Assembly: GCA_032718475.1 (NCBI GenBank)
Contig: JAUCBJ010003342.1
Location: 50,216-114,215, forward strand
Length of the DNA stretch: 64,000 nt
Direction of reading: 5' to 3'
Origin: Nemertoderma westbladi
Taxonomy: Eukaryota; Animalia; Xenacoelomorpha
Made by a program: the position numbers and the translations under genes. A model generated the notes under the pieces. That model was not told the origin of the DNA and searched no databases. It saw only the letters and a list, made by a program, of their open reading frames with translations. Positions 18,810 to 61,802 of the stretch are shown piece after piece; within the stretch, counting starts at the first letter, position 1; every line of letters starts with the position of its first letter.

Positions 18810-19317
18810 CCGCTCCAAGGGAAGTCATGCAATGTTTCCCTCCAATTGTAGAAGAGTGTAAGGCGATGTATACAAAACAAAATAAATCTCTTTCAAATAA
18901 TCTAAATATCTTGATACTATACTATTTACAAATATTGCTATAGATATTGCATAATGAATTGCATACAAATTAAATTTACAAAATATTATCTCTCTCAATG
19001 TTAACGATTATTACATACAAATTAAATTTACAAAAATACTGTTTTCCATTCGTTCTACATAATGATTACTACATACAAATTAAATTTACAAAAACTTTCA
19101 AATATATAAAAAAATTTGCTAGGGTAGGTGAAAGGAGTAAGCCAAACCCGCAGGTTTGTCTCCCCAATCAACTCCTTCGCCTCTCTCATAATATAAATCC
19201 AAATCAGTGCGACTAGTGTATATGAGTCAAGTCGGATGTTTAAAAAAAATGCTACAATATACATCAGAGCGACGATGATGTATATATCTAGAGTCTGTCG
19301 CCCCGTGATACGATGCA

Positions 19318-23607: not shown

Positions 23608-23761
23608 TTGTTCTCCTAAATGTTTTGAATGTTTTAAACAAAGGTACGAAATGTATCGGCTTAACCACGCAGTTCTTTTACAAATTGTCAGCCAAGAGGC
23701 AGACGAATTTAGTAATTTGTCATAAATACTACATGGCTCTAATTCCAGCGACGGTTGTCCG

Positions 23762-24883: not shown

Positions 24884-24892
24884 TTCTATGTC

Positions 24893-28099: not shown

Positions 28100-30429
28100 G
28101 TCTTCCTCTTCATCGCTTGATTCGGTGTCAGTCCTCGCGATGGTTTGCGCGCCGAGGCCCTGACCCAGGCTTCTTGAATAAATTTCTCAGCTGAGTTTTC
28201 GAAATTGGGATTATGTATCGTAGGGACAGGCATCCTTACCTGAGGTCTATGTGGTATAGTTGCCTCCGATATACGTACTCTTTGACTAGGCTGGACTTTA
28301 TCTAACTCAAGCCTGCTAGGATTAGAATTACTTCTTACCTGGGCTGCTTCCTTTAACCGTAGGTTGCTAAGCATGTCCGTTATAGGTTGGATGTGCGGTG
28401 ATATAGCTTGCGCTAAACTAGCACTTAACTCATCCCTCGTAATAAATTCCTGGCTAGGGTTCTGTTGTATAGTCAGCTCTATCTGAGTAATCCGCTGTCT
28501 CTCATATGATCCCTCTTCCGGTTTAACCCGGAAGTTCTCCGTCGAACTGGGTCGGCGCTCCGTCCGCGTATTCCAAACTCGCGGGTTCGGTTCGCCCAAT
28601 ACTCGGCCCGTCGGAGTTTCTCCTCTAAACTCTTCGTTGTTCTCGCGTTCGGTATGTAGTGGTGCGGTGCGATGATGCGCTGGATTCTGCGCGATAGGTG
28701 AAGCACTAATACCAACTGGCATGCGATATGTAGAGAACGGTTTAGCGATCCGTGTACTCGTAATAGCTGGACCGGGTATAGGAATTCTGGTCGTCGTCGA
28801 CTCGCGTATGGTCGGAGTTCTCGCTTCCTGTTCGGCCTTCTGCAGTGCGAACAGTTCTCGCAACTCAGTCCCTACACTCGCCCCACATTCTTCGATCATT
28901 CGCATCCCCTTCTCGGCGATTTCATTCGCCTTCCTGGTCCGTTCTTCGCACTCTAAATTTAATCTCGCACTTTCCAACTGCGCCAGTTTACGTTCTTCTT
29001 CTTCCCTCGCTCGTCTCGCTGCGCTCTCTTCTTCCACTCGCGCCTTCTCTTCATACAATGCCCGTCGCTCCCTCTCGCGCTCAAGTTTGCGCTCCTTGCG
29101 CTCGCGTTCGAGTTGGAGTTTGCGTCTTCTTTGCTCGCGTTCCTCAGCTTCCCGTTTGCGTTTGCGTTGAAGTTGGAGTTCGCATTCTTCGCGTTCGCAT
29201 TGGAGTTGGAGTTCGCGCTCTTCGCGTTCGCGTTCAAGTTGGAGTTCTCGTTCTTCCTGTTCGCGTTCCGCTTGTTCCCGCTTACCTTTATCTTCCAACT
29301 CTCGCAACTTTGCGTCTAACTTACGTATGCGCTCCCGTTCCCGCTCGGCTTCCTTCCGTGCCTCCGATGCACGCAAAACTTCCGCCTGCTGTTCGTCCAG
29401 TCGGCGTCTTCTCTCCTCTGCCGAGTTGTGAGAAACAAGGGATCTAGCACATATAACCGTCCCTCGCTCGTGACTAACCTGGGAATCGCCACTGTCTCTA
29501 GATGCGTCGTCGGGTGGAGTCAACGTCCTCTGTTGGATGTTCTCCGTCGTCGGTAGCACCTGGCCCGGTACCACCACTCCACTCTGCATCAGCCAGCTGG
29601 TAACTTCCCGCTGATACCTGCGCTCCTCCTTATCTTGCGTTTCTTCCCGCTCCACTAAATCTCTCGACTCTGCGTCACTCACCTGAGTCACCTGCGCTTG
29701 TGATGCCCATAGCAGCCAGTTCTCCGTCCTAACTCGCCGAAATCGCTCCGATAACGTGCGGTGCTCCAACAAGGCTGCTAAAACCCTGTCGTAAATCCTC
29801 GTCGCCACGTCGCTCGACTGAGATTCTACTGCCTTCTTTGCTAGGACTGCAAGCTCCTCCGTTTGTTTGAATAACGCTGAGTTGTATCCTTTTCTAATCT
29901 CTACTAACCCTTCCCTTCCGATGTTCGCTGAGTCGGCTAACATCTTCCTTACCTTGTCCGCCGTCCGAGTTATATGTCCGGCATGCGCGCGAAGTTTCTT
30001 CTTTATCGCGATGTCTAGTTCTCTTTCACTTACCTGACTCACACTTGGTGGACTTGAAGGATTATTTCGGGAACTACGGGTACTCCTTTTAGCCGCTGGG
30101 ACCACGGCACTTACCATACCCACAGGTCTGGAAACCGGGCTCCGGGCTCTCGCTTCTGCTACACTACCCTCCCTATCACTCACCTCTGGTTGGGTTGCTG
30201 TACAATCCTTCCTTACAGTAGCGGTAGGGGATCCTAATACTATTACGTGAGGTTGTTGTTCTTCCTCACTAATTACTGTCTCGTCCTCCTGTTCACTTAC
30301 GTCAGCGTCACTCGCTGCGTCATCATAGTCGGCATTGTCGTCAACAGTAATATTAACGCTATCGTCAGTCGGCGGTCCTGCCGCCGTCTCATAGCTGTCC
30401 TCTAGTGCCTCCTTCTCTGAGACACTCAT
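28096..30429 (-). CDS. gag: Element A Gag N-terminal ORF (acidic N-terminus, long coiled coil)
   Basis: 777-aa ORF directly upstream of, and overlapping by 4 nt (ATGA), the Gag-core ORF. Confidence 0.75.
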   Translation of the reverse strand: MSVSEKEALEDSYETAAGPPTDDSVNITVDDNADYDDAASDADVSEQEDETVISEEEQQPHVIVLGSPTATVRKDCTATQPEVSDREGSVAEARARSPVSRPVGMVSAVVPAAKRSTRSSRNNPSSPPSVSQVSERELDIAIKKKLRAHAGHITRTADKVRKMLADSANIGREGLVEIRKGYNSALFKQTEELAVLAKKAVESQSSDVATRIYDRVLAALLEHRTLSERFRRVRTENWLLWASQAQVTQVSDAESRDLVEREETQDKEERRYQREVTSWLMQSGVVVPGQVLPTTENIQQRTLTPPDDASRDSGDSQVSHERGTVICARSLVSHNSAEERRRRLDEQQAEVLRASEARKEAERERERIRKLDAKLRELEDKGKREQAEREQEERELQLEREREERELQLQCEREECELQLQRKRKREAEEREQRRRKLQLERERKERKLERERERRALYEEKARVEEESAARRAREEEERKLAQLESARLNLECEERTRKANEIAEKGMRMIEECGASVGTELRELFALQKAEQEARTPTIRESTTTRIPIPGPAITSTRIAKPFSTYRMPVGISASPIAQNPAHHRTAPLHTERENNEEFRGETPTGRVLGEPNPRVWNTRTERRPSSTENFRVKPEEGSYERQRITQIELTIQQNPSQEFITRDELSASLAQAISPHIQPITDMLSNLRLKEAAQVRSNSNPSRLELDKVQPSQRVRISEATIPHRPQVRMPVPTIHNPNFENSAEKFIQEAWVRASARKPSRGLTPNQAMKRKT

Positions 30430-31765
30430 AGTCTAAATAATATTTGCCTTCCGGCAAAATATCTCGCAAAAGTTCGAGATATATATATAATTTAATCAAA
30501 ATGCGATTAAATTATTTGTCAAATAATCAATTGTCCAAAATGTCAAAATAAATTCGCAATGCAATATTGTGAATTTAATAGGATCTAATTTTAGCAAATA
30601 CCAGTACAATATTTAAACAAAATATTATTCTATAGCTATTATATAGTATTTAAATACCGGTATGACACAAATAATTTTTTGAATCTAATACAAAATATTC
30701 AAAATAAACTTGCCACCCGAATATTTCTAATTTTACATATATAACTCTAATTAACGCAATTTTAATTTCAAATATTATATGTATCCACTAGCGCGTGGCT
30801 ACATCTTCGGGTTGCGACTCTCTCTCTCTCTCTAACTCGAGCGATTCAAAAACCCATGGTCGGCTAAACCTAACTATCCTAACTAATAAATTGAGTTCAG
30901 CTTCGCAGTTAAACAACCGATAATTTTTTACTGCTTCCACAAACACAATGGTGCCAACAGAACAACTAACCTTGTTTGCTATGAGATTCCACGTCCGCGT
31001 CCAAAGTTTCAGTCCTTTCGCTGATTGCAAACCGAACCCGCAGACCCACACGAACCCCAAACTCAGAAGCTCCGTCTTGCCATGTATCTCCAGATGGTAT
31101 AAAATAACTAAGCGGTTATCTAACATACCGGTACAAAACTCTAGATTTTATTACAAAATAATTTTGACCAAAACTAAATTCTCACAAACCTAGCTAAAAT
31201 TTTTTCAAAAACTTACTAATTACGGCCTGCCCTGACGGCCTAAGGAACCGCTGTATTTGCGATTAGTAAACGCACTACCGTATATCCACTGTACGCAATA
31301 CAGTAAGTAAAACAGTACACCAACCTAACAGCCTAATGAATACTGTGTGCGGAACAGCAAAACAAATGTCTTTTCTACTGTACGCAGTAACAGCGATCAG
31401 CCTAATGTACTACTGTACTATTGTACGCGACCAGTGAATACAGTAATCTAAACTAACAGCCTAATGATACACTCGTCACTGTAAGCAGTAGGCCTACAGC
31501 AGACAATATGCGTGCTTTACTGTTAAAGCAGTCAAGCAATCTAAAGTAACAGTAAATAATACAGTAATCTAATGCTGAATACACTCTTTACTGCTGCAAG
31601 CAACAGCCAATATCACGTGCTTTACTGTTGAGGTAACGGCAAATAATACAGTAATCTAATTTAACAGCCTAAGAATACACTCTCTGTCCTACTGTACGCA
31701 GTACAGTACCTAATAAATACAGTAATCTAATTCGTACTTACTGTACGCAGTACAGCAAAACAAAA

Positions 31766-31775
31766 CGTGCTTTAC
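31766..31775 (-). promoter_or_regulatory. Non-canonical primer-binding-site position of element A (GTAAAGCACG)
   Basis: Abuts the terminal CA of the 5' LTR; no TGG; complementary to LTR positions 32803-32812. Confidence 0.6.
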
Positions 31776-33997
31776 TGTTACGAACAAACTACCCGGCCTA
31801 ACCAATAAAGACACAAAACTGCTCTATTTACTAGACAGGGCAATCAGGAGCGTATAATTACTAATATAGGGTTGCATGCAAAACCACTACTTACCGTTGG
31901 ATGGCGCTAATCTGCCGTCCGCTAATATATTTCCTAAATTTCTACAGCTCCTGCTAAATTCTCGTTCCTTTCTCTACCAATTACTCGATAGAGAGCTAAC
32001 TGTTTGAATATATGAGCCACGCGGGAATAACCAAAACAATAAACCCAAATCGGCTCCCTAAGCTGACTTAAGACGAGTGTGAGAGATTTGACACTCAGAG
32101 TGTATTTTATAGCCTAATCCTACTGTAAAATTGCGCTTACAACTACGTCCTTTCTAATCGCATCTAATCGCATCTAATCACAATACTGGGGTTCCCTAAC
32201 GGAATGTGTGAATGTGAGAATATTTAAAATAATCAAAATTGATGCAGCGTTTATTTCGGGACTCAGACTTATCTGCGGCTGGCTTTAGACCAGCAATTTA
32301 CTGATGCGCGCTGTATACTGTATACTACGATGTGAATTTTGTCCGCTAATTCAAATAACCGCCCAGCGTGAATAGTGTACGGTACTCTAAAATTATTACC
32401 TTAACTACCCTCCGCTATGCAGCGTACAAATTCTTAATTTTACTAATTAATTACAGTCACAAATATGTAACGGCGTACTAATTACTAAGTATTCCAGAGT
32501 GCGTAATTCTAAATTATTACGCAACGGGTCACACTAGCAACAGCCTAAAATACCGTATTATTTTCAACCTAATCAGAAATTAATTACAGTAAACTAAGAA
32601 ATAGAAATCAATCAAAGGGAAAAGAGCGCCTATCCAAGCTGCCAAGCATTCGTGATTTATTAGGCACACTTTAGTAACACACCAATCAGCATAACAATCT
32701 ATAGTTTATACTTACCAATTTAGTTCTTAACGCACAATTCACAATCAGCAGTCAAACAACAATCGCAATCTACAGTTTAGCTAGCAATTCACAACTCGCA
32801 ACGTAAAGCACGCAGATCTCTCCCGGCTACGTCTAGGCTTCCTAACTAACCCAAATCCTGTCCCCCTAATACTACAAAATAGAGACAAAACCTGGATCAT
32901 CAGCCCCTAATTACTGAACCGGCGTACCTGACCCACTTTACGCTGCAAACTTTGCATTCGCAATAGTAATCCCCCCAATGTTGCTTGTCTTTGAATCCTC
33001 CGCACTCCCGTCGTCGCTAACCCCCCAATGCGCCCGCCGCGCTTACCGGTACCCTAGCCCTCCATCAGAATGAGTAGCTACCGTAGCGGTACATGCAAAT
33101 CACAAGGTCTGACAGTCTAAGAAATCCCATGGGATTATTGTCGAAAGGAATCACATAGAACCATTTACTAAGGGGTAGAAATCATAGTTCCAATTTGTAA
33201 TTAACAGTGATCATTGAGATTGATTGAGAAACACAAACAAGAATCAAACAGAAATTGCAAATTAGCGAATTATTGCAAGAAAATCAAAAGGGCAGTAATT
33301 TACACAGAAAACTAAGCATCGAATAATAGTTGAACAGGGAATAAAGTGAAGGTGAGCTGTGTGGGGTGTGGTGGATGACTAAGGATGTGTGGAATAAGTA
33401 ACAATGGAAGTACGCCAATTTATAGGTGATTTGAGAAGGGTGATGCAATCGATCTCTCATTGGCTCCCCAATCCGAGCTACAATTAGACCAACCTGGAAG
33501 CAGTTAGGCCAATAAGAGAGCCGGATTGTGAACCTATTGCTCCCTGGATTCGCAAATTGCCACCATAAAAGGTAATTTTCCCGATGCTTAATTTGGCGGT
33601 ACTAATTATATCATGCACAAATATAAATTTAGCGCAATTATAGAGAAATTAAAACCAGTAGCTAGCCTCATCAAGGCTAATAACGGCAAGCCCATATCCA
33701 GGGTCCAACAAGGACTTGCTACCCTGGAACTATCTACTTATATCCTATTACAAAATTACATAGGTAGGGCTACATACTATACAAAATGGATGAGTTCAAA
33801 ATATATGGGCGTTTCAACTTCCTTATCTAAATATCATTGCGCGTTATGCCTTATCTAAATAATTATACTGCATCACGGACTAATATATGATACTATATAA
33901 TGGACTAATATATTATACTGTATAATGGACTAACGTATGTACAGTACAACGGACTAATATATTACATAATGTAGGTACAGCGCCATATACCGTAACA
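31776..33997 (-). repeat. 5' LTR of element A (2222 bp)
   Basis: tgttacgaacaaac...accgtaaca; candidate TTCAGT initiator at 32918-32913. Confidence 0.95.
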
Positions 33998-39386: not shown

Positions 39387-40568
39387 TGTTCGCGCTTTCA
39401 GACCTTTAGCAGTTTAACCTGCCAAATTTAGATGTCTTCTAGATTATAAATCGACTTTAGCCTATGACGAGTATTTGATACACTACATTAGACGAAGCCA
39501 GTCTATGCGCGACCATTCACCCGCTGGATATACCCGGGAGACTGGATTCGGAAGCTTTGACCTTATTGCGGTGTAGGCCTACTGTATTATTCGACTGATC
39601 GTTAATATATAATTTCTGACAAATATTATTCACTTTCGGGAAATATTAACAGTTCCTTTAGGACGTGGCGCTCTAAATATGTAAACAGAGTTATGACTTA
39701 CACTAGACACAATGGGATGGCTATTGATTCACGTATAAAGCGCATTCTTTAGGAGATGCTTTGTTATCAGTCACAATCATGCACACTACCGCACAATACT
39801 GCACACCGATCTGCCGACCTTTACTAATTTTAGTCACATATAAAGAGAACAACAACCGACACATGTAGTGCCTATGAAATAGCATTAGATTCACTCCAAA
39901 ACCAATATAATGTAAGTCGCAATTGTTATATGTAACCGGTCTCTTACCTTCAGTATATCAAGAAGATTGGGGGTTTTATAATTATTTATCGATATTATCC
40001 AATATAATAATATTCCATCAACTGATATAATTAATAACCGACAGTAAATAGCAGTAAAAATGCGGTATTTGTAGTTGACAATATGATTTGACACACTGAC
40101 TTGCATGAGTTGATATGATTAGGTGAGGTAACAGTTATATGTTTCTATGATCAAGCCTACTAATGTTTGGCTAAAGCCTGAAACACAGAAATTCCAAAGC
40201 CGGTCTTCTGGCTGTGGACAAAATACACATACTGACTGAATTGCATGAGTTTCTGTATACAATCTCCAACACAGAGTGAAAACCGCTCTGATTGGTCGAC
40301 CGAACAAAGAACGAACAAAGAACAAAGAAAAGTTACACGTGGACATAGCTGATAGATGTCGTCATCGGAGTTCCGATGTTTAGAGTATTTGGCTTATTGC
40401 GACATAAAATCGCTAGTTATGTCCGCTAAAGTACACATACAGAAGAAATGGCTTTTTATGTCCACTAAAACACCGGTACAGTAAGGAAACGGCTTTTTAT
40501 GTCTGTTAAAACAACTACAGAGTACTTTGCAGGGAAAATAACCAGCTAATTCCGCAAAAGCCTTTACA
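39387..40568 (-). repeat. 3' LTR of element B (1182 bp)
   Basis: tgttcgcgctttcag...gcctttaca; matches 60631-61802. Confidence 0.95.
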
Positions 40569-42575
40569 CCGCTCCCAGAAAATGGGATTTAATTCTATAA
40601 AATATAAAAAATCACAGTTTCTAAAATATAAAAATACTCTAAACAGTAAGTCTTTCTTACGCGGACGGCGTTTACGCAGTTTTTTGAGGCTAGCAAGAGT
40701 CCTTTTTTCTTTGGGGCGAGCCACTTTACTAGGAGGGCTATAACTCCTGGGTGAAGGGTGCAATACAATTGCATCAGAAGGTTTAGGATTACGATCGGTG
40801 TATCCGCCGGTCGAGGTACCTGGTTGATCGATATCAACTTCAGTGGAGCGAGGTCTAACGGCCTTTAGGGCGCGTCTTAGGACAGCAGCTCCTACTGGTC
40901 CCTGACGAGTCGTCTGGACAATAGCGGTAGGTGGACCGTGAGTGGTGAGAAACTTCCTCGGTTTAATGGTTCTTTCCAGCTCGCGTTCTCTGGCTCGATA
41001 TTCGTAGGGCCGTCGAGATACTTCCTGTAACTCAGGGTGCGAGTTGATAAATAAATCGCCATACTCAGGGTCTTGACGGATGAAATTGATCAAATGGTAT
41101 GAATTAATAACGTTAGGATTGACATTCCTGAGATATTTTCGAACAAATTTGGTGGAAATACACTCACCAACACGCTTCATTAGTTCGTAACTCGGTGTGC
41201 GTGTTTTTTGTTCAACAGATGCGAATAGATAATGATGGAACGCGTAAACTCCCTCGTAGGCGCGTCTAGGGTAATAGCGATGGCGTGACTCACAATGCAA
41301 ATCCGCGTTCGCTTCCCAAGCTCGGATGTAGCGCAGGGTAATTATTTCATCTACGCTTTCCAGATCGCGGTTAAAAGGGCAATTAAAACTGGCATGTCCT
41401 TTAAGTTGACAGTGGTGGCATTGATTCATAAATTGAGGGCAGACTGCAAAAATGTGCGAGTTATTGAGTCTGCAATGCGCACAATAGATCTCCATCATCG
41501 GTTGTTCATGGAAATAGGAGCAGGGTACGTCTGAGTCCATAGGGGTGAAATGATCTCTCGATGCGCATAATCGGCAACGTTTTCGAGAAACATAGTTGGC
41601 GTGCCGATAATCGTATGCGGTGAGACATTGTGGACCTTGATACCATTCCAAGACGTAGTCGTTATCGCCGCTCCGGGGCGCTGTAGGCTGAATCTCCTCA
41701 GATTCTAAGCATATTGGTTCGTCTTCCAATTGCATAGCTGAGATAGGTGCGGCTGTCTCCGCAAGCGAACCCACTGTCTGAACTTCCACGACAGAATAAC
41801 CCGTGGGTATTCGAGGTCTTTGTATAACAGATGAATGTAAGTTCTGTATACAAATGTCCTTGAAAAGGGCGAATCCCGCGCTGTTTAACTTCTCCGCAGC
41901 TGAGTCTCTTAGGCTGAGTTTGGTCAGAGCGCGGTCCTTGAACTGACTATCAACGTTACGGAACGGAGTCAGAAAGCGCCTGAAACATTCAAAGCGGATG
42001 AATTTATTGTGTTCATCTAGCTTGGCGAGTTTGGTTCCAAGTATTAAGGGATGGGCGCGTATGGTACGACTGCACACATCGGCTAGCCAACCGGCAAGTG
42101 CGGCGTTTTCAAAGATCGTGTATATAGCTAAGGAGGGACGAAGTGGAACACTCATAAAGCTATACACGGCGCCAGGTGCGGTCAATGGTCCGTCAAAGTA
42201 TAATCGAGAATAATGATCTCCATATACTTGTTGATAGTTGATAGGATTTCCAACCTTGAAATTCCATCCGTATTCTTGAAAGGCAAGATGTCCGATGGAG
42301 GTTCGTTGTACTTTAGTAATGCCGCTGGGTGTATTTGCATACATAGTGCAGAAGAAACCTCGGCCTTCTGCCCAGGGAGCAATCAGCTGAGTATCTACGA
42401 AAGGATATGGGATATTCTCCATGTTCCGAAAGTCGTTTTGGAGATCTCCATAAACAGCTGAGCCGATTTTAAGGATTCTTTCGTTAAACAACATCTCAAG
42501 CACGGGCTGGGGTAACATCGATCCATCGATACCCATGGCTGGTTTGCGCTCGGTGTCGGTGACGTAACGCTGTGC
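40515..42575 (-). CDS. Element B ORF3, C-terminal 686 aa: rest of DEDDy-like exonuclease plus three CCHC knuckles and basic tail
   Basis: LPQPVLEMLFNERILKIGSAVYGDL; FVDTQLIA; SIGHLAFQEYG; PLRPSLAIYTIFEN; CRLC..H..C, CAHC..H..C, CHHCQLKGHASFNC; in frame with 50197-52521 once C is removed. Confidence 0.85.
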   Translation of the reverse strand, partial: AQRYVTDTERKPAMGIDGSMLPQPVLEMLFNERILKIGSAVYGDLQNDFRNMENIPYPFVDTQLIAPWAEGRGFFCTMYANTPSGITKVQRTSIGHLAFQEYGWNFKVGNPINYQQVYGDHYSRLYFDGPLTAPGAVYSFMSVPLRPSLAIYTIFENAALAGWLADVCSRTIRAHPLILGTKLAKLDEHNKFIRFECFRRFLTPFRNVDSQFKDRALTKLSLRDSAAEKLNSAGFALFKDICIQNLHSSVIQRPRIPTGYSVVEVQTVGSLAETAAPISAMQLEDEPICLESEEIQPTAPRSGDNDYVLEWYQGPQCLTAYDYRHANYVSRKRCRLCASRDHFTPMDSDVPCSYFHEQPMMEIYCAHCRLNNSHIFAVCPQFMNQCHHCQLKGHASFNCPFNRDLESVDEIITLRYIRAWEANADLHCESRHRYYPRRAYEGVYAFHHYLFASVEQKTRTPSYELMKRVGECISTKFVRKYLRNVNPNVINSYHLINFIRQDPEYGDLFINSHPELQEVSRRPYEYRARERELERTIKPRKFLTTHGPPTAIVQTTRQGPVGAAVLRRALKAVRPRSTEVDIDQPGTSTGGYTDRNPKPSDAIVLHPSPRSYSPPSKVARPKEKRTLASLKKLRKRRPRKKDLLFRVFLYFRNCDFLYFIELNPIFWERCKGFCGISWLFSLQSTL

Positions 42576-42580
42576 GAGTT

Positions 42581-43118
42581 TGTTAGCTTATCCAATTCCG
42601 CTAACACAAACCCATAGAGTGAGCCATTAAGCAATATTGGGAGCACGAGGTTGATTACCAATATCAACCTCGTGTTACCCCAATAAAGTGGGAAGGGAAG
42701 GAGAAACACACAATGGAGGGTCAGGGGCCAAACCCCTAACCAAGAGAGAACACAAGGAGTGAAGGGAAACACTCCAAAGGGTGCCAACAGGGATATCAAC
42801 CAATCAGAGGGGGGAAAGGCATCGATTAGGTACAGCAATAAGGCCACCGTGCAATATAACCAGTTACCAGTAATCATACCAGTCAGTTATCCCAGTATCA
42901 TATTGGTGCTAGTTAGGTTAGATAGTTTAGCTAGGGAAGGACCGGGACTTTAGTTACCGTATCCCGCCTTCCGTGTACAACAACCTACTGCCATCTATAT
43001 CTTATTAGACTGATCATTATATACACCGAACATCAGAACTCATTTTACTCTTTACACACGGCGGGGACGCGTGAACTAAACATCGGATAAATCGGGATCC
43101 CTCCTGGATCCCGTCACA
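42581..43118 (+). repeat. 5' LTR of element C (538 bp)
   Basis: Matches 49655-50196; AATATAA at ~42853 and TCAGTT initiator at 42883. Confidence 0.95.
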
Positions 43119-43127
43119 GTAACTAAA
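43119..43127 (+). promoter_or_regulatory. Non-canonical primer-binding-site position of element C (GTAACTAAA)
   Basis: Abuts the LTR terminal CA; complementary to TTTAGTTAC at 42949-42957. Confidence 0.6.
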
Positions 43128-43187
43128 TCCGTGCTGCTGCCCTGGATAAACTCAATAACCACCAGCCACCAATCACTAAAGACGAAG

Positions 43188-45988
43188 ATGAGTCGAGAGA
43201 GAGGAACGACACCGCCGCGGACCCCGGACGACGATCTAACGATCCGCGAGGCCACGGCGAGACGATACGAACCCACGACGCCGGTCGATGCTACGTCGAC
43301 CACGTCGACGCCGGTTGACGCCACGTCGATAACGAGCAACCCGGCGAACCAAGATGTGGGGGGTCGTCTACGAGGAGAGAGCGAGTCGAGTAGAGGAGAG
43401 AGTGAGACGGGAGAGGAGAAAGACGAGTCGACGCGGAGCGAGGGTCGACGTACCGATGTCGCCGGCCAGCCACAGGCCGAGGGCGACGGACGGCCCACCG
43501 GAACGGCAACGGTGGGGCCGACGGTACGACGCCGAACCCGGAGGGAGAGAGGAGATGTCGACGACGAGGACGTCGGGGTCGTCCGGCTCCGACGAGCCTA
43601 CGCCGCGACCCGGGAACAACTGAAGGAAGCTAGAGGAGGGGCTGAGATAGACCAGGTGAAGTTGAGGAGACGACTAGGTGAGTCGAACAGATACTTTGAT
43701 TACCTAGTGCGTTCTGGGCAGGGAGAACTGGCCGAGGAGAGAGCGAGAGGGGTTGCCTTCGAACTGTTTGGGCTATGGGAACGTAGGGGTATGGGGCCTG
43801 GTGTAGTGTACATAGGGCCATACTTAGTCGATGCCAGGGAAGTTAAGTTAGTGGGTTGGGCGGGACCGCACGAGGGCGAATCCGAGGTTAGCTCCGAGGA
43901 TTCGGTCTCGTCGGTCAGCGAGGACCCCGGAAAGCGGGGGAAAGTTGGTAGGACGGAGGGGCGGCGGGAGTCCGTCGCAACCGATAAGTCTGCTACATCC
44001 TCCGCAAAAGAAAGAAGGGTGCAGGAGATAAATCTGGCTGCATATAAATTAAAAATTGAAGAATTAGAGTGGCGACTGAGGGGAAGGAAGGAGCGAGAGA
44101 GTGAACGCGAAGAGCGTGAGGCAAGAGAACAGAGCGTGCGGTACACGTACAGTACGTACAGTAACCGTACGGGCGGGGGGGGTAGTAGTAGTGCGTTAGG
44201 AAATATTGGTATTAATAGTACCGTAGTAAATAACCCTAATCCCTTTATTACAGGAAATATTTTACCCGGTAGTAGTAATTTAAGTTTAAATTCAAATAAT
44301 AATATTAATTCAAATATTCAGAATAATCAAAATAATTCAGAATAGTTTAAATTAAATAAAAAATAATTTAAATAATAATCCCGTTTCAAAATTCTAATAA
44401 TTTAATTGATTTAACAAATAATATTGGGAATGGTGCTATTAATGTGAACGCGTCAGACGTGTATAGCCCGGCAGACGGCGGCCTGGTAGGCCACGTAGTT
44501 AGTAGGCAGGAAGTGGCGCGGTTGAGCCAACCCGAGGTGGGCCTGGTAGGCCACGCAGTAGTAGAGAGAGAGGCGGGGGTGAATAGACCCGGCCGCAGTA
44601 GAGACAGTGTGTCGACTAGAGAGGGGTGTAGAGACGAAGTAAGAGATATTGAAGTTAGATGTGGCGGGTGGGGGGGGGGGGGGCTACGGGCGCCCCACCA
44701 CATGAGATTAGCGGCGAGAGAGGGGGGGCAGAGAATGCCCCACAAGAGGGGTGTAGAAGTGTAGTAAGAGGTAGTGAAGTTAGAAGTGGCGGGTGGGGGG
44801 GGGGGCTACGGGCGCCCCACCACAGAAGATTAGTGGCGAGAGAAAGGGGGTAGAGAGTGTCCGACAAGAGGGACGCAGAAGTGTAGTGAGAGATAGTGAA
44901 GTTAGAAGTGGCGGGTGGGGGGGGGGGCTACGGGCACCCCACCGCGAGAGATTAGTAGCGAGAGAGGGGGGGCAGAGAGTGTCCCACAGGCGTCAGCGGA
45001 TAATGCGCGGGCCGAATTAGGTAAACCGCAACACCCGGCGACGGAGAGTAATAGGGGGATTGCGAGTATCCCCAGCGGCGTGCGATCGAGCAGAGAGAGA
45101 CAGGTTGACGTCGCGAGAGGGCGGGCGACGGAACGTCGAGCCCAGTCAGAGGATAGGAGATCAGTAGAGTTTAATAGAGAGGTCGAAGATAGAAGAAGAT
45201 TAGTAGAGTTTAGCCGAGAGGTCGAAGAGAGAAGGAGTGAAGATAATAGGAGAGTCGTTGCTAGGGGCAACCGGAGAGCGAGGACGGATAGCGAGCCGTC
45301 GATAGTAGAGATGGAGGTAGGGAGTCAGTGGGGTCGAACTTCGGGAGATTGCCGTCGCCCCGGAGAAACGCACCGCACACCAAGAGAGGGGTACAGGATG
45401 TACCGATACGAAGACGAGAGCAGGATAGGGGATCGAAGGAAAGCTTCCCGACGTGATATAGCTGCCGATCGAGAGTACGGTAGTCGCGGGGAGATTCGAG
45501 ATTCGCGAAGAATAAACTTCGGTTCGGAAGGGCACATGCAGACTGCAGGACATACTGTAGGCCTTACTGCACATACTATTATAGGCCATGCTGGGAGAGA
45601 TAGAGTAGGCGATAGGGTAGCGCGAACGACGGGATTAAACCCGGAAGTCGCGGAGTACATACCGGTAGGTAGGCGAGAGGTAGGTAGGCCTATATCGGTA
45701 CAGCAGCATGACTATAATACACAGGGACATAACATATATCCAGGGGAGGGGGGAATTATTGCAGATAGATGTATGGGCCCCAATATATTAACATCAACCC
45801 CAGTACCAAACATACCGGTGGGAGGGGGACAGGGTGACATTCCCCCATCACAATATCAACAATATACCCCAATAGGAGCGAGAACATCGAACCCCTTGGA
45901 CGAGAACAGATCATGCGACACGGAAATATGGAGGGGGCCGTTACCCCCAATGATATATCCGACGCAACAAGAAATCAACAACAGATAG
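43188..45988 (+). pseudogene. gag: Element C Gag N-terminal region, broken by stops and frameshifts
   Basis: Low-complexity R/E/G-rich ORFs 43131-44345 and 44915-45988 upstream of the Gag core; first ATG at 43188. Confidence 0.55.
44620..44990. repeat. ~123-bp tandem repeat (3 copies) with poly-G tracts inside element C gag
   Basis: gaagttaga(t/a)gtggcgggtg(G)nctacggg at 44651, 44776, 44898. Confidence 0.85.
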
Positions 45989-46055
45989 GACGGACGGACC
46001 GCACCCAACAGGAGAAACTATACAACATCCATCGAACCCATTAGAAGCGCAAGCG

Positions 46056-48263
46056 ATGGGAATGGCCACATTGATCGATGCGTTAAAAACTAGGATCGAG
46101 TTACCACCTGTGGAACCATTTAAATTCGATGGGAGTAGGCCGGAAGAATATCTACAGTTTCGGCGCATGTATAGTAATGAAATACTAACAAAGAACTTGA
46201 CGCAGGCGGAGTGCCTAAAATATCTGCAAGTATATACTGGAGGCCCAGCATACGACATCGTGAGGCAATACCAGGGCATCGAGGGCGGCTTCACAACAGC
46301 ATGGCGGGCGCTAGATAGGGAATACGGGCACCCGGCCAAGATCATCCGGCAAACCCTGAGAGGCATAACATCGGATGGCCTACAGGACAATCCCGTTAGC
46401 ATAAGGACCTTTGCAAACAAGGTCGAGAAGGCGTTAATCGTGTTAAAGACGCTAGACGCACCATACGAACTCAACGCGTCTAACAACATCACCACGATAG
46501 CGCAGGCACTGCCGGTCTGGTTACGAAGGAAGTGGAGGAAAATCGCTTTCTCCACACGTGAGAAGAAAGGTGCGGAACCGGGCCTAGAAGAAATGTCGAG
46601 CTTCCTCAACTATGAAGCCGAATTAATAACAGACCCAGTCTATAGCGAGGATAGTTTGGGGACAAGCCATAAACCCGAACACGATCCTGCAGATCCATTC
46701 CCGAGAGTAGGACAATCACTACCACATGCGGCCACACAGGGGACTGCTAGTCCACAGTTAGCTGGTAGCAGGGCCACACCGTGGCGGGGACAGAAAGAAA
46801 ATAACACCATAAATAAACATAATCCCAATGTACCCAGTAGGCCGAATACAGACAACCAAAACACTAAATCGGTACATATAAACCTAGGCGCGATACGTGA
46901 GGGACTATACAGGGAACGCTATAACCCAGGATTCGAATGTCAATTACATCGGGACGGAACACATAAGACCAGGAGTTGTAAGCACTGGCAAGCGTTGCCC
47001 AAACAAGATCGTATAGCCTACACAGACGCAAACGGACTATGTCATCGATGTGTGGTAGAAGGGCACAGATCCGGAGAGTGTAGAGAAACAGCAGTTAGAG
47101 AGTCCGAGACTGGAGGCCAGGCAATGGCCACAAGCACGACAGAAGAGGAGAAGAAGAGAAAAGTACTACTCGGGGTAGTACCAGTAAAGATATCAGGAGA
47201 GGGCGGTCGATCAGTAACGACGTTAATGCTGGTCGACAGCGGAGCAGCCTTCACGCTGGTGGAGAACTGGGTGGCCGAAGAGATAGGGCTAAAGACGAGG
47301 CCGAACAGAATGGCGGTAACTACCGTCTCGAGTAAAGATGAGGTCCTGGAGATGAGGACGGGGCGGTGCAGGATAGCAGCGATTGCACCGGGATGCGGCT
47401 ATGGGGCGACGATCGACCCCATCCACGTCATCGAATCGATAAACATCAACGCCAGGCGACCAACCAACATTGAGGTCGAGCAGTATAGATTCCTGGACGG
47501 TATCGATTTCTCAATACCAAAGGTGGACGTTAGGAAGGTGTCCATTATAGTAGGAATGGACTGCCCGACGGCCCATGAGAGGATGAAGACGGTCTTCGGC
47601 GAAGACAGGCAGCGGGACCCGACGGCGATCCTCACGCCGTTCGGATGGACGCTTAGCGGCCCAGTTAAAACTAAGATCCCATGCAGTGTGACAGAGACAT
47701 CTGGGTGCATGATACCAGGCACCGAAGACGCAGAGGAAGTAGAGGAGAAACGAGAGATAGTAGAGCCAGATAGGGAGGTGACAGTAAGAAAGTGGGCAGA
47801 GGAGAGTAGGTTTCCCAGCAAGCATCGGTATGGAGATGAAGCGGAGCAGACGGCGAGGTGTCCGGAGGACAACACTCCAGAGGAGTGTCTGGAGGAGTGT
47901 CTAGAGGAGTGTCCGGAAGAGATGCTGGTCCGGTTTGGAGGCATACCGACAAGGGGGAAGTCGAGAAGGAAGGCAGGATGGAAAGGAATAGGACTACTGT
48001 TCTGCCTGTTCTTTCACTTTCTATTCATTCTGCCGGCGGGAGACAACAAAGAAAGAGATGGCATTTTGATGCCAAGAGAGGACATAGTTAAGAAGGCGGT
48101 GGAGAGACCCGATTTTGGGGTGGTGAAAGGGGGAGAGCCAATTCCAGACGAGTTGGAGTTGGCGAGGAAAGTGGGTGGAAAGATAAGAGGACGCGCAGGG
48201 GGACAGCGGGACAGTGCCTCGTGGAAGAATCGATGGAAGATCGAGGGGCAGCTTAGAGTTTAG
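46056..48263 (+). CDS. gag-pro: Element C Gag core, zinc knuckles and aspartic protease; no RT follows
   Basis: FDGSRPEEYLQF..CLKYL..LDREYG; CHRCVVEGHRSGEC; LVDSGAAFTLV; IIVGMD; TPFGWTLSGP. Confidence 0.9.
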   Translation: MGMATLIDALKTRIELPPVEPFKFDGSRPEEYLQFRRMYSNEILTKNLTQAECLKYLQVYTGGPAYDIVRQYQGIEGGFTTAWRALDREYGHPAKIIRQTLRGITSDGLQDNPVSIRTFANKVEKALIVLKTLDAPYELNASNNITTIAQALPVWLRRKWRKIAFSTREKKGAEPGLEEMSSFLNYEAELITDPVYSEDSLGTSHKPEHDPADPFPRVGQSLPHAATQGTASPQLAGSRATPWRGQKENNTINKHNPNVPSRPNTDNQNTKSVHINLGAIREGLYRERYNPGFECQLHRDGTHKTRSCKHWQALPKQDRIAYTDANGLCHRCVVEGHRSGECRETAVRESETGGQAMATSTTEEEKKRKVLLGVVPVKISGEGGRSVTTLMLVDSGAAFTLVENWVAEEIGLKTRPNRMAVTTVSSKDEVLEMRTGRCRIAAIAPGCGYGATIDPIHVIESININARRPTNIEVEQYRFLDGIDFSIPKVDVRKVSIIVGMDCPTAHERMKTVFGEDRQRDPTAILTPFGWTLSGPVKTKIPCSVTETSGCMIPGTEDAEEVEEKREIVEPDREVTVRKWAEESRFPSKHRYGDEAEQTARCPEDNTPEECLEECLEECPEEMLVRFGGIPTRGKSRRKAGWKGIGLLFCLFFHFLFILPAGDNKERDGILMPREDIVKKAVERPDFGVVKGGEPIPDELELARKVGGKIRGRAGGQRDSASWKNRWKIEGQLRV

Positions 48264-48479
48264 TCGTCCAATATTTGGACTGAGGGGGGTGGGAATGAGG
48301 GCGAGACGCCCTTCCCACAAGAAATTAATTATTTAATTAAAAATAAAAATAAATAATAATAAATAATTAAATAATTAAAATAATAGTTAGTAGAAGTAAG
48401 AAGTAGTTCGAAGATAGGAGAGTAAGTTAGAAGGCGGCGGGGTAAGGGAGTGTGGCATATTGTCATGCATCATTTCACG

Positions 48480-49070
48480 AGTAGTAGTAGGGGGGTTGTG
48501 GGCACCGTAAGCGCCACGTAGAAAGTAGTAAGAGAGGGGTTGTGGGCACCGGAAGCGCCACGTAGAAAGTAGTAGCAGAGAGTGGTTGTGGGCACCGGAA
48601 GCGCCACGTAGATAGAGGTATTAGTGGAGGTGGAGATGTAGATAGAGTAGAGTGGTAGAGATGGGCACATAGGGTGCCAGCTAGTAGAGTTAGAGATAGT
48701 AGAGAGTTAGTAGAGTTAGAAAGATAGTAGCAGAGTAGAAGCAGTAGTAGAGTGGTTGTGGGCACCGTTAGCGCCACGTAGATGGAGGTAGAGTTAGTAA
48801 GAGGGTACGTAGTACCGGTTGTGGTTGTGGGCACCGTTAGCGCCACGTAGATGGAGGTAGAGTTAGTAAGAGGGTACGTAGTACCGGTTGTGGTTGAGGG
48901 CACCGTTAGCGCCACGTAGATGGAGGTAGAGTTAGTAAGAGGGTACGTAGTACCGGTTGTGGTTGTGGGCACCGTTAGCGCCACGTAGATAAAGGTAGAG
49001 TTAGTAAGAGGGTTTAGTTAGAAGTAGTAGAATGGTTGTGGGCACCACAAGCGCCACGTAGATGGAGGAT
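48480..49070. repeat. Tandem repeats (44-46 and 69-bp periods) in the 3' UTR of element C
   Basis: Core ggttgtgggcaccgttagcgccacgtaga occurs 8 times. Confidence 0.9.
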
Positions 49071-49654
49071 TTTAGTCAGAGTTAGAAAAGAGTTAGTAGA
49101 CTTAGCAGAAAGTTAGAGAGTTCTAGTTAGAGTTAGTAGAAAGTTAGAGGCTTTAGTTAGAGCTAGAAGTAGTAAGAGTTAGCAGAGAGTAGAGTAGAGT
49201 TAGTAGAGTTAGGAGTTAGTTAGAGTTAGAGAAGTTAGATAGTTAGCAAGTTAGACCTTAGATACGGTAGATAGTATGATAGCACAGGGGTAGCATTAGA
49301 GGTCAGGGCCTTAGAGAGTGGCAGGGAGTAGAGAGGAGATAGTGAAAGGAACTGTTGGCGAGAGAGAAGAGTGCGATTCAGGTGTGGGGAGAGGGTAAGA
49401 GCGAGTTGAGTCAGAGAGCGGAGTTAGAGTGGTAAGAGTGTTGGGGAAACAAAAATTGTGTGAGAGAAGTGCACGATCGGCCCGACACGAGACGCCAGAG
49501 GGTAGTGACATCATACCCATAGGGAGCGGCCCGGAAAGCCGACTCCAAGAAAATAACTCCACCCCACACCCGATAATAGATCGGGATCCAGCGGAATTGT
49601 AGCGCACTTTAGTTGGATGCTATCTTCTTACCGGGAAGATAGCATGGGGGGGAG

Positions 49655-50196
49655 TGTTAGCTTATCCAATTCCGCTAACACAAACCCATAGAGTGAGCCA
49701 TTAAGCAATATTGGGAGCACGAGGTTGATTACCAATATCAACCTCGTGTTACCCCAATAAAGTGGGAAGGGAAGGAGAAACACACAATGGAGGGTCAGGG
49801 GCCAAACCCCTAACCAAGAGAGAACACAAGGAGTGAAGGGAAACACTCCAAAGGGTGCCAACAGGGATATCAACCAATCAGAGGGGGGAAAGGCATCGAT
49901 TAGGTACAGCAATAAGGCCACCGTGCAATATAACCAGTTACCAGTAATCATACCAGTCAGTTATCCCAGTATCATATTGGTGCTAGTTAGGTTAGATAGT
50001 TTAGCTAGGGAAGGACCGGGACTTTAGTTACCGTATCCCGCCTTCCGTGTACAACAACCTATCTGCCTATATCTATATCTTATTACACTGATCATTATAT
50101 ACACCGAACATCAGAACTCATTTTACTCTTTACACACGGCGGGGACGCGTGAACTAAACATCGGATAAATCGGGATCCCTCCTGGATCCCGTCACA
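49655..50196 (+). repeat. 3' LTR of element C (542 bp)
   Basis: Matches 42581-43118. Confidence 0.95.
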
Positions 50197-52521
50197 GAGT
50201 TCGAATTGTCCATGTCGGAGTTTCTTTTGTATCTCGGTAAGGGTCTCAAAAGAATAATCAATCACATCGGAACACGCTCGAGTAAATACGTGGGTAGAAC
50301 CAGCTAGTCCTCGTATGTGTATCATTCGCGTAGTTCCTAGTTCTCCAACCGGAATGCTACCTTCGTTATCGTAAGTGACAACTCCATACATCTCGATAAC
50401 GTTAAGAGTCTCATTCCACTCTTTAGTGGCGTTTTCTAGAGTCATTCCCACTGGATGCCACAAGGTAGCGCATTCGCTAGCATTAGGTAGATCTCTATAC
50501 TTTAAATATTGTGTAGTATATGTTTCTACATCTCCATATCGTTGTATTCTTTCCTCCTCGAATAACACGTCGAGATTCCAGTGTACTAATCGAGTTTTGA
50601 TGAATCCATCAAGATTATACGGAGGTATTGTCTCTTTCTCTATTCTGGAAACATTATAGGGTTTTCGAAATGAGTTTACTTTAACTAACTGATCCAGATG
50701 TTTCTGCAGTTGTTCGAGTTCGACAAGATCGAGAGGATTTATTAGTGGTAGAAACCTCAGACTATGTGTAGGATCTTCCGGTTTTACCATGTAATATTGC
50801 GTTAGATTGACGTAATAAGGGTGATCTTTGATCCCATAAAACGAGTTCGGTAAAGGTCTAGCGCGTATGTTAACATCGTGTACCATACGACGGACAAGAT
50901 CCGCTCTATTGTCCGGAGGTTCAACGAGTATACCATCTACAAGAGCGGCCTCGATTGGCGGACGTTGCAACATGGGAGCGTCAGCGATAAGATCTCGAGA
51001 TCTTAGGTTGATATCAACCAGTTGAGGCTGTGCCGTGGCGAAGAGTTTGTCTCCGAAATGGGGAACCATCAAAGGATGGATGATGGTTTTAGAATAGAGA
51101 TCCGTCATAAGAATTTGAGCTTCTGGCTGAGCTAAAGCTGCTTCTTCTCTCTCATCCATTTCTATGTGTTTCTCCTCGAGCTGATTTTCCTCCGCTTGTT
51201 GTTGTAAACGCTCGTCTAGGAACTCTTGTAAAGAGTAGGTTCGTCCACGTTCGATGTCTTCCTCGAGATTCTGGATTTCTCTATTGAACTGGGGTAAAGC
51301 TAATTCTTTCACCACTTGGACTTGTTGCTGCAATTTGCGTTTCTCTAAACAATCGTAAGTTCCTTTTCCGATTTTCTGCCGAATAGCGTCTAACGCGTTT
51401 CGTACAACGCTCTCTTCGACTTCAGTAACGGGTTGTATCGGGTTTAAGCCTGGACGGTTGTACGGGTTAAACGGCGATATTAGATGACCGCGTCCTAATC
51501 TGGCTAGGTAGGGTTGGCGAATATCTAGTGAGCCTACTACTGGAGTGCCACCGATCAACTGTTCGGGCAACACAAGATCTTTAAATAGTGAGTACAGTTC
51601 AGGGGGATCCATTATACTATTAGGATCAAGCGTTTGAGGTCTCACTGAGGAATGAGGAGGTCTGACCGAGTATTCCGGAACTCTGATCATTGGTTTATTC
51701 AAGGATCGTTTGAGTCGAGCGAGTATAGGTGATACGTCGAACAGGTTTCGCTCGAAACTCCCATAAGTATATCGTGTAAAACTGTGTTTAGCGCAACGTC
51801 TCCGCGGGTGTTTATGTCTTTCCGTTTGCTTATTGGGTCTAGGGCATTCGTCGCAGTAATACCAAAGACGCACGTCCTGCAGGGGAAACGCGGGTGATCG
51901 TTCTCCAGTTTTACAATATTCCTCCATCTGTTTGAAGCTATCTGGGACGACAGGTAGCGGTCGATCAGCGGTAAGATACATCATAGTGAAATAGAGTCGT
52001 TTGAGTTCTATCATAGGGTCATGATGTATACCTTGAGGATATCGAGTTTCTAGATTTTGTTGACTGGCAATATTGAGATATGTTTCTCTCAGGAATTCCA
52101 GATAATCGTTGAAGTCGCTGTGTTTATCCGGCTCTTCAACGTCTTCCCTTTCGAGTCTGTTTCGAATAGTATTCTCTTGTTCTATTCTCGGTTTATCGTT
52201 CCAACTCCGCTGGGTATGATATTTAAATAAAACCATTTCCCTTTCGGTGTCTACATCGTCCGTATCGTGTAAATCGATAGGATGGCCAGTAGTTAAGAAG
52301 TCCATATACGTACCATTACGATGCGTATAGTGAGCGGTGAATTTTCTATAATCCAATTCACGCGTAAGTTGCTCCTGGGACATTGGCGGTTCGATATAAC
52401 GACCATCGTCCTCCGTAGTAGTTGGACCAGCGTCGCCGCGTATCAAGCTATCCACAAACGCTTGTAAAGGTAGAGTATATCGCTCCCTGATACCAAGATC
52501 ATCTTCTATCAACTCAGTCAT
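50197..52521 (-). CDS. Element B ORF3, N-terminal 775 aa, including a Cys/His cluster, coiled coil and exonuclease motif I
   Basis: Uninterrupted ORF from ATG 52521; YCDEC..HKH..C..H; VVTYDNEG (DxE); the last 33 aa of the tracked 808-aa ORF are read-through into the C LTR. Confidence 0.85.
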
Positions 52522-54227: not shown

Positions 54228-54860
54228 TTACGTTGGGGAGTCCCTAGATGTTTGTTGGATTAGGGAGGTGGTCGTGGGAAGAGTATCTTGCCTTCCATAG
54301 TTTCCGGACAGTTCTCTGCCTCTTTCCAGTAAACATAAACGACCAACTGGGCGATTGAGTTGTTGTGTTTCGAATACAATTCCAGGTTTCCTCTTCGTCC
54401 TGGAATAGTGACGATAGAAACATCGCTTCAAATACACAACGGCCTTACAAAGCCGATTCCAGGATCTATAGTGGTCCATCGCTCCCGGCAGGAGAGGTGA
54501 GAGTCCCGGCGAGACGTCTGGTGTTCCAGATCTCCAGTCTCTCTCTCTGATCTCCACAACAGATCGGTTCGCGGTGGGGGAGTTTAGATCCACAGTGTCG
54601 TCCCTGGCAATGTGTAGTACAGACAGATCTATCCCGGGTTTAAATAACCTTGATTTACTCGTCCGGGTTTTAGGTTTGACTTTCTCCGCTCCCATGGCTT
54701 GTCCAATCTCAGCCGTGGTAAGATGGGGAGGCCATTCATCTTCTTTACTTAGGAAGTCGGGTCCACCTAACCAGTCTGGAGTATCTGTCAGTTCTTGAGG
54801 AGTTGCTCCTCTGGAAGAGATGTCGGCTAGATTAATCGTCTCGGGGCAATGTCTCCATGA
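54228..54860 (-). pseudogene. pol: Deleted pol remnant of element B (end of RNase H region fused to last integrase residues)
   Basis: WRHCPETINLADISSRG..WLGGPDFL..EWP; SWNRLCKAVVYLKR; RPVGRLCLLE, with no RT or DDE core. Confidence 0.85.
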
Positions 54861-60619: not shown

Positions 60620-60630
60620 ATAACTGTTAT
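60620..60630 (-). promoter_or_regulatory. Non-canonical primer-binding-site position of element B (ATAACAGTTAT)
   Basis: Abuts the LTR; 10 of 11 nt complementary to LTR positions 61372-61382. Confidence 0.5.
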
Positions 60631-61802
60631 TGTTCGCGCTTTCAGACCTTTAGCAGTTTAACCTGCCAAATTTAGATGTCTTCTAGATTATAAATCGACT
60701 TTAGCCTATGACGAGTATTTGATACACTACATTAGCCGAAGCCAGTCTATGCGCGACCATTCACCCGCTGGATATACCCGGGAGACTGGATTCGGAAGCT
60801 TTGACCTTATTGCGGTGTAGGCCTACTGTATTATTCGACTGATCGTTAATATATAATTTCTGACAAATATTATTCACTTTCGGGAAATATTAACAGTTCC
60901 TTTAGGACGTGGCGCTCTAAATATGTAAACAGAGTTATGACTTACACTAGACACAACGGGATGGCTATTGATTCACGTATAAAGCGCATTCTTTAGGAGA
61001 TGCTTTGTTATCAGTCACAATCATGCACAGTACCGCACAATACTGCACACCGATCTGCCGACCTTCACTAATTTTAGTCACATATAAAGAGAACAACAAC
61101 CGACACATGTAGTGCCTATGAAATAGCATTAGATTCACTCCAAAACCAATATAATGTAAGTCACAATTGTTATATGTAACCGGTCTCTTACCTTCAGTAT
61201 ATCAAGAAGATTGGGGGTTTTATAATTATTTATCGCTATTATCCAATATAATAATATTCCATCAACTGATATAATTAATAACCGACAGTAAATAGCAGTA
61301 AAAATGCGGTGTTTGTAGTTGACAATATGATTTGACACACTGACTTGCATGAGTTGATATGATTAGGTGAGGTAACAGTTATACGTTTCTATGATCAAGC
61401 CTACTAATGTTTGGCTAAAGCCTGAAACACAGAAATTCCAAAGCCGGTCTTCTGGCTGTGGACAAAATACACATACTGACTGAATTGCATGAGTTTCTGT
61501 ATACAATCTCCAACACAGAGTGAAAACCGCTCTGATTGGTCGACCGAACAAAGAACAAAGAAAAGTCACACGGCGGACACAGCTGATAGATGTCGTCATC
61601 GGAGTTCCGATGTTTAGAGTATTTGGCTTATTGCGACATAAAATCGCTAGTTATGTCCGCTAAAGTACACATACAGAAGAAATGGCTTTTTATGTCCACT
61701 AAAACACCGGTACAGTAAGGAAACGGCTTTTTATGTCCGTTAAAACAACTACAGAGTACTTTGCGGGGAAAATAACCAGCTAATTCCGCAAAAGCCTTTA
61801 CA
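60631..61802 (-). repeat. 5' LTR of element B (1172 bp)
   Basis: Matches 39387-40568; TTCAGTCAGT initiator-like motif at 61484-61475. Confidence 0.95.

Follow-up and report, generated by a model that had tools for sequence, protein, structure and literature searches.

Can a long terminal repeat (LTR) retrotransposon of the BEL/Pao type carry a nuclease gene of its own, and on what would such an enzyme act? This question is raised by a 64,000-nucleotide (nt) stretch of the Nemertoderma westbladi genome (contig JAUCBJ010003342.1, positions 50,216 to 114,215, forward strand), which we call the window and in whose coordinates all positions are given. On its reverse strand, an element that we call B has a third open reading frame (ORF3) that is interrupted by another element, C. 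The original prediction joined the two pieces of ORF3 into a protein of 1461 amino acids (aa) with an exonuclease-like domain and three zinc knuckles. We found that the two pieces are very probably one accessory gene, under selection, of a multi-copy BEL/Pao family. Its product is predicted to contain a DEDDy exonuclease domain, and quite possibly this nuclease acts on the element's own RNA.

ORF3 of element B and its family

The features of ORF3 are as follows, with residues numbered in the joined count of 1461.

50197..52521, reverse strand: N-terminal piece of ORF3, 775 aa from the first Met, ending in HGQFEL
50370-50362, reverse strand: candidate ExoI motif YDNE (D718, E720), at the end of the N-terminal piece
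42581-50196, forward strand: nested element C, with BEL/Pao-type gag and protease, inside ORF3 of element B
42575-40518, reverse strand: C-terminal piece of ORF3, 686 aa, beginning with AQRYV
42039..42575, reverse strand: predicted exonuclease part, with ExoII GDL (D819), DTQ, SIGHL and ExoIII IYTIFEN (Y927-x3-E931)
41318..41576, reverse strand: three Cys/His zinc knuckles (residues 1109, 1140 and 1161), then a conserved Trp-containing segment
40515..41317, reverse strand: C-terminal part, with a basic tract from 40685 onward

Neither piece contains a stop codon. Removing element C together with one copy of its GAGTT target duplication (42576-42580 and 50197-50201) joined the 775 and 686 aa in frame, as had been proposed. 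With this duplication on both sides of the insertion and no shift between the frames, the two pieces are read as one gene split by element C. By simple arithmetic, the chance of 775 sense codons in a row is of the order of 1e-16. The LTRs of element B differ by only about 1%, so frames that have stayed open since its insertion are not by themselves proof of selection.

Evidence for selection came from other copies of the family. We compared the stretch 39300-44300 with four public DNA runs from three studies. It is highly repeated, with 25,797 contigs in run X1 (the summed depth is not a copy number). The best-supported 40 of 701 differences were examined, and 22 of the 40 fell inside the ORF, in its C-terminal piece. 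Those that vary among other copies were mostly synonymous (9/10, compared with 34% expected for random transitions; p = 4e-4), which argues for a gene under selection. Comparatively, only four of the 12 differences private to this copy were synonymous (Fisher test, p = 0.011). The pattern is that of a gene which would be kept by selection in active lineages and is decaying in the window copy. In addition, one contig of study P3 (X4 record 31) covers 42246-42579, up to the insertion point, and then continues in 86 letters that do not fit element C. It behaves as an uninterrupted copy of ORF3 would.

Could the two pieces be unrelated, or the exonuclease likeness a product of chance motif-spotting? 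We consider this hardly credible. It is true that no match rose above a curated cut-off, that the N-terminal piece has no detected relative and that no read was inspected base by base over the break. The five-base duplication and the frames in register speak against it, however, as do the P3 contig and a protein described below, P0002, which holds ExoI and ExoII/III in one chain.

The C-terminus of ORF3 is less clear. The 3′ LTR starts at 40568, and the frame, after crossing the polypurine tract, continues into it for 54 nt, so that the last 17 codons and the stop belong to the LTR. Other family copies often have a one-base gap at 40606. Thus, the frame given as 1461 aa is open, but its natural C-terminus and this figure are uncertain, and the protein made in nature may lack the last 30-45 residues. 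At the other end, the first ~700 residues had no recognised relative in Pfam and atlas comparisons, and the N-terminal piece gave no usable atlas match. A Cys-x2-Cys ... Cys-x2-His cluster at residues 223-246 of this piece (51783-51855, reverse strand) is possibly a further zinc site.

Several sequence features lie ahead of the gene. Just upstream of its first ATG (52522-52570, reverse strand) are a TATAAA and a TAG-CAG acceptor-like run, a possible internal promoter or splice acceptor. A mostly AT-rich non-coding spacer of 1.7 kb precedes ORF3 (52540-54228, reverse strand) and contains a 165-nt imperfect duplication (53310-53474 and 53542-53705) with no Rfam match. The LTR of element B has a consensus splice donor at 61191 (reverse strand), directly preceded by an A-rich TATAAA tract, and 250 nt beyond the donor (60940) is a possible acceptor. 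The donor could be used to make an ORF3 message, or else inhibit 5′ polyadenylation.

The window contains three BEL/Pao-type LTR elements, A, B and the nested C. The features of A and the remaining ones of B are:

16597..33997, reverse strand: element A, with BEL/Pao gag, protease (PR), reverse transcriptase (RT), RNase H (RH) and integrase (IN), several stops, 2.2-kb LTRs and target duplication AAGAC
19318..21238, reverse strand: decayed ORF3 homologue in element A (tblastn E 2e-20, 24-33% identity)
61802-39387, reverse strand: element B, with target duplication GAGAA on both flanks
60631..61802, reverse strand: 5′ LTR of element B, 1172 nt, TGT...ACA, its boundary set by the duplication GAGAA
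54827..59193, reverse strand: gag (DUF1759, three knuckles) and protease of element B (PF03564, E 4e-10)
54648..54857, reverse strand: pol remnant of element B, 71 residues matching the stretch after RNase H
39387..40568, reverse strand: 3′ LTR of element B, identical to the 5′ LTR at 1158 of 1171 aligned bases

All three elements are of the BEL/Pao type (Belpaoviridae). DUF1759 and five-base target duplications are present in each, the gag type and the Pao-type pol domains fit, and element A has the order gag-PR-RT-RH-IN between its LTRs (Peptidase_A17, PF05380, E 8e-38; DUF5641, PF18701, E 9e-18). The gag/protease region of B has one in-frame stop and a frame change, and its protease region is similar to that of A (E 2e-18). 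Searching B for the RT, RNase H core and integrase of A gave nothing; B is a deletion form without these parts. The LTRs of C (42581-43118 and 49655-50196) are identical at 537 of 538 aligned bases, and RT was not found in C.

The original prediction put ORF3 in the env position. Element A bears this out, as its homologue begins about 0.9 kb past the integrase stop, but element B does not, with its RT, RNase H core and integrase unmatched. The placement in A indicates a third-ORF position and leaves no room for the 700-residue N-terminal region of B. The two families are only about 25% alike. That ORF3 lacks env-like features was confirmed. The highest 19-residue hydropathy means of its pieces are 1.07 and 1.19, compared with the usual threshold of 1.6 for a membrane helix, so no membrane segment was found, and no viral glycoprotein family in Pfam matched.

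Some other observations concern the rest of the window. In both A and B, gag is extended at its N-terminus to an unusual length, with coiled-coil repeats ahead of DUF1759 (28096-30432 and 57895-59193, reverse strand). An open frame of 292 codons lies between A and B (34274-35152, reverse strand) and resembles no Pfam family above chance. A 170-base repeat flanks element B on both sides, outside the LTRs (37394-37564 and 61933-62083), and a 400-base segment at 62155-62555, 82% self-complementary, resembles a miniature inverted-repeat element. Tandem arrays are found at 12548-14302 (78-base unit), 6991-7582 (about 75) and 2802-3305 (21). No Rfam family and no tRNA gene were detected in the window.

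The predicted exonuclease domain and active site

Relatives of ORF3 are few. A protein search covering 1.84 billion representatives returned three proteins at E <= 0.001, among which only P0002 is a true relative (to B, E 7e-11 over 150 columns; to the knuckles of A, E 3e-4). It is a singleton of 648 aa from a 9449-base ENA contig, considered here as a protein only. Exonuclease, three knuckles and a Trp-containing segment follow in the same order as in ORF3 of B, and its nearest atlas cluster is a euglenozoan protein with PF01612 and zf-CCHC (0.86), an arrangement shared with the trypanosome enzyme TbRND discussed below. The other two, P0001 and P0003, were rejected; they are repeat-rich proteins and match only a short acidic stretch. 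Searching with the C-terminal piece among proteins of 1202-3430 aa gave no homologue, P0002 as query retrieved only itself from 7989 scored candidates of 356-1134 aa, and a three-row alignment query had no match at 28-398 aa. There were no related loci in viral contigs, metagenome contigs, prokaryote genomes or phages, and plasmids gave one chance match. The homologue in element A corresponds to the C-terminal part, with a DTK motif, the ExoIII Y-x3-E and three knuckles, and is broken by a frame change and a stop. A basic C-terminal tract is present in all three family sequences (B, A and P0002).

We infer with high confidence that the domain has the DEDDy fold (PF01612; RNase D/WRN-type). The support consists of several modest results, none strong alone. 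When the first 260 residues of the C-terminal piece were used as query, 29 of 30 atlas neighbours were PF01612 clusters (best score 0.91), and RNase D models matched the domain weakly (E 0.0018 and 0.0078). A reference profile of 28 prokaryotic PF01612 domains was searched against 847 targets, including 200 shuffles and the six-frame segments of the window, with the B domain read with X at the break. P0002 ranked first (E 0.0017) and the B domain second (7.0 bits; the best of the 200 shuffles had 1.6). A profile-profile comparison gave 76.7% (E 2e-5 over 146 columns), while its reversed control gave 0.2%; it places the P0002 motifs IDVE on ExoI, ADL on ExoII and YIYCE on YAAAD. The ExoII Asp and the following D-T motif of both B and P0002 align to the reference profile. 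PDB sequence searches stayed at chance level; in one of them RNase D (E 0.95) and EXD2 (1.7) came below an unrelated regulator (0.57). A PHROGs search gave no match.

Element C was inserted within this domain, between ExoI and ExoII. All of the motifs named in the original prediction (YDNE, GDL, DTQ, SIGHL and IYTIFEN) were found in ORF3. ExoI D-x-E (in B a candidate) and the ExoII Asp are present in both B and P0002, and ExoIII is Y-x3-E in B, A and P0002, at equal spacing from the PL/PP motif. The acids are thus conserved among homologues in so far as four positions are acidic in B and P0002, but with Glu for the ExoIII Asp in all three sequences. Among DEDD enzymes, such a D-E-D-E active site would be unusual in its chemistry. 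The triple CCHC knuckle needs a similar reservation. Three Cys/His knuckles do lie ~180 residues past the exonuclease domain, but only the third has the exact spacing CX2CX4HX4C (first, CX2CX4HX9C; second, CX2CX5HX4C), and their zf-CCHC_3 match (E 8e-4) is under the Pfam cut-off. An accessory gene with a DEDDy domain is supported at the level of PF01612, but the claimed kinship, nearer to WRN/EXD/Mut-7/Nibbler than to RNase D, is not; the weak matches are to RNase D and EXD2, and no Mut7-C or related Pfam domain was found in either ORF3 piece or in P0002. The motif VTDTE just past the break was considered as ExoI and rejected, since its partner in the alignment with P0002 is a non-catalytic segment and two strands would not fit between it and ExoII.

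Several observations weigh against an active DEDDy domain. Neither ORF3 piece matches any Pfam family above cut-off, and P0002 scores only 11.9 bits with PF01612 (E 0.2; cut-off 23.6). The best atlas match shares 155 of 256 features, below the 170 typical of family members, and two AlphaFold models were unusable (pLDDT 33 and 38). The YDNE of B is the best local partner of the P0002 ExoI, yet 727 of 1000 shuffles score equally; the ExoI of B is a candidate placed by motif and position only. B also has ~34 extra residues between ExoI and ExoII, and both of these motifs are unreadable in the homologue of element A. Finally, 26 of the 28 references have Asp at ExoIII (Y-x3-D), two are unreadable and none has Glu, so activity may be weakened or abolished in ORF3.

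The domain might accordingly be a nuclease fold with little or no catalysis that, like EXD1 or Maelstrom, binds RNA and serves in the export, packaging or localisation of element RNA. The Glu shared by three of three family sequences would suit this, as would the basic tract and the ~700 extra N-terminal residues of B, and inactive DEDD derivatives in the piRNA pathway are named in PMC5408684. One would expect a dead site to lose its acidic residues, however, and four positions have stayed acidic in B and P0002 at 28% identity, with the ExoIII Tyr also kept. We regard a dead fold as rather unlikely and predict that the nuclease is probably active.

Leader pairing and the candidate substrate

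The original prediction suggested primer maturation or counter-silencing as the function of ORF3. The first of these gains circumstantial support from the missing tRNA primer site. No TGG was found within 8 nt past the 5′ LTR in A, B or C (the sites were not compared with a tRNA set), and every leader is exactly complementary to a short segment of the LTR of the same element.

31766-31775 with 32803-32812: leader pair of element A, 10 nt
60620-60629, reverse strand: primer-binding position of element B, with no TGG tRNA site; pairs with 61373-61382
61373..61382, reverse strand: candidate self-primer of element B, a 10-nt LTR segment that is the exact complement of the leader and is also found in the 3′ LTR
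43119-43127 with 42949-42957: leader pair of element C, 9 nt

The observed pairing lengths were reached by 12, 15 and 11 of 2000 shuffles for A, B and C, respectively. The three leaders differ, and the six cross pairs between elements reach only 5-7 nt, compared with 9-10 nt for the own pairs. Among 87 downstream control windows, one equalled the leader pairing in B and none in C. In B, the first base past the LTR is unpaired. The LTR pairing segments of A, B and C all end in or run into TTAC. A primer built by splicing was also tried; it failed for A (199/300 shuffles) and for C was no better than the unspliced match (8 vs 6 of 300).

We tentatively propose that ORF3 trims the 3′ end of the element's own RNA. 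A more specific form, our preferred mechanism though by itself rather unlikely, is the trimming of a self-primer after a loop-opening cut. By analogy with Tf1, the pairing between leader and LTR would form in the RNA and an endonuclease would open the loop. The single-stranded tail would then be gripped by the knuckles, as happens with the four of TbRND (the RNase D of Trypanosoma brucei), and shortened by the nuclease as far as the duplex, so that RT is given a 3′ end. It is from the knuckles and the analogy with TbRND that we infer RNA as the substrate. This offers a specific candidate, an LTR-leader duplex with a 3′ tail. Taken to its end, the proposal would mean that a BEL/Pao lineage gave up host tRNA primers and that its own Nibbler-like exonuclease, with a D-E-D-E site and three knuckles, matures a primer cut from its own RNA. 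This is speculative; if true, a nuclease dedicated to primer maturation would be seen here for the first time in a retroelement. In the window, the copy of ORF3 is interrupted and B is without RT and integrase.

The link between nuclease and primer also has points against it. It consists of their co-occurrence in A and B only, and element C has the leader pairing without an ORF3 gene. Element C is also without RT, so its lack of the gene says little. In A, the pairing of the leader with the LTR is equalled by six of 87 downstream control windows. To judge by the title of a 1996 study by Levin, the self-priming of Tf1 is reportedly credited to the RNase H of RT. The cargo also occurs in other lineages, as the DEDDy ORFs of rotifers show.

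An active exoribonuclease might instead counter host silencing, by degrading piRNAs or siRNAs or by removing U-tails that mark element RNA for decay. TbRND, which has the same domain pair, trims U-tailed guide RNAs (PMC7797062), the ExoN of arenaviruses suppresses innate signalling (PMC7968707), and a separate ORF3 product need not be in the particle. On the other hand, no Argonaute or PIWI interaction motif was recognised in ORF3, and PMC5408684 reports no clear link of the rotifer DEDDy ORFs to copy number or silencing. We consider this role unlikely; if the nuclease acts on small RNAs, ORF3 would be an element-encoded counter-silencing enzyme. It is more improbable still that ORF3 is a DNA exonuclease that edits the cDNA, clearing its 3′ ends of the mismatched or non-templated bases that RT leaves, ahead of strand transfer or integration. 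PF01612 does take in polymerase proofreading domains and WRN, and the DEDDy domain of Dada DNA transposons is thought to process DNA 3′ ends (PMC3706591). But CCHC knuckle arrays usually bind single-stranded RNA, as in TbRND (PMC7797062), and the weak matches of ORF3 are to RNase D and EXD2, not to polymerases.

Comparison with known systems

The novelty of ORF3 had been overstated. RNase D-like DEDDy third ORFs were published for the bdelloid rotifer LTR elements Juno and Vesta, and such ORFs were also described in Athena/Terminons (PMC5408684). In these, DEED replaces DEDD, with no demonstrated activity. That report could not assign the nuclease cargo of retrotransposons to any step. ORF3 resembles the Juno and Vesta genes in being a non-envelope DEDDy third ORF after pol, in having one catalytic Asp changed to Glu and in having attracted the same functional guesses. 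The host clades there are Juno, Vesta, TelKA and Mag, not BEL/Pao, and no knuckle array or 700-aa extension is described for the rotifer ORF3 in PMC5408684. By description, the altered site of the rotifer genes reads DEED, whereas that of ORF3 reads D-E-D-E.

The likeness to TbRND, drawn at the level of shared fold, is that of an exoribonuclease-type domain followed by a CCHC knuckle array. TbRND is a cellular mitochondrial DEDD exoribonuclease with the four canonical acids, a short linker and four knuckles that bind single-stranded RNA (PMC7797062). In contrast, ORF3 is borne by a retrotransposon and has three knuckles ~180 residues past the domain and Glu at ExoIII. Dada DNA transposons of Laccaria and Ectocarpus also carry a DEDDy domain, but it lies inside a DDE transposase, is a canonical DEDD and is proposed to act on DNA ends (PMC3706591).

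The ICTV profile of the Belpaoviridae describes env-like third genes only, and an 18-nt primer site for tRNA-Arg or tRNA-Gly (PMC8742986). Our elements agree with it in their gag and pol domains and the order of these (element A), LTRs, polypurine tract and an optional third gene. They differ in that the third gene is a predicted nuclease and no tRNA site was seen in the TGG test; the 2.2-kb LTRs of A and the lengths of A and B also exceed the ranges given there. In the last respect but one, the elements resemble Tf1 and Tj1, self-priming LTR retrotransposons of the Ty3/gypsy lineage, whose primer site is complementary to a short segment of their own LTR and is not a tRNA site (PMC4600332 and PMC6317226, in excerpt). 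In Tf1/Tj1 the pairing segment is the 5′ end of the mRNA, whereas here the pairing is known from sequence alone, and the excerpts mention no accessory exonuclease.

Our literature search found no report of a BEL/Pao exonuclease or of BEL/Pao self-priming; Repbase, Dfam and GyDB (for the exonuclease) and most subscription journals (for both) were outside its scope. The word exonuclease does not occur in the main texts of PMC3118150, PMC12440569 and PMC11673190, and the supplements of PMC3118150 hold element sequences that possibly carry the ORF. Three reviews cite the rotifer case (PMC6338049, PMC6431247 and PMC5718144), and none of them, in excerpt, puts it in BEL/Pao. A DEDDy ORF3 is thus apparently undescribed for BEL/Pao, yet it is a variant of a published type of cargo. 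This cargo is now seen in a second superfamily, in two families and under purifying selection, beside a primer site that departs from the textbook BEL/Pao arrangement. With its D-E-D-E site, its knuckle array and the missing tRNA primer site, ORF3 is more than a further example of a known cargo.

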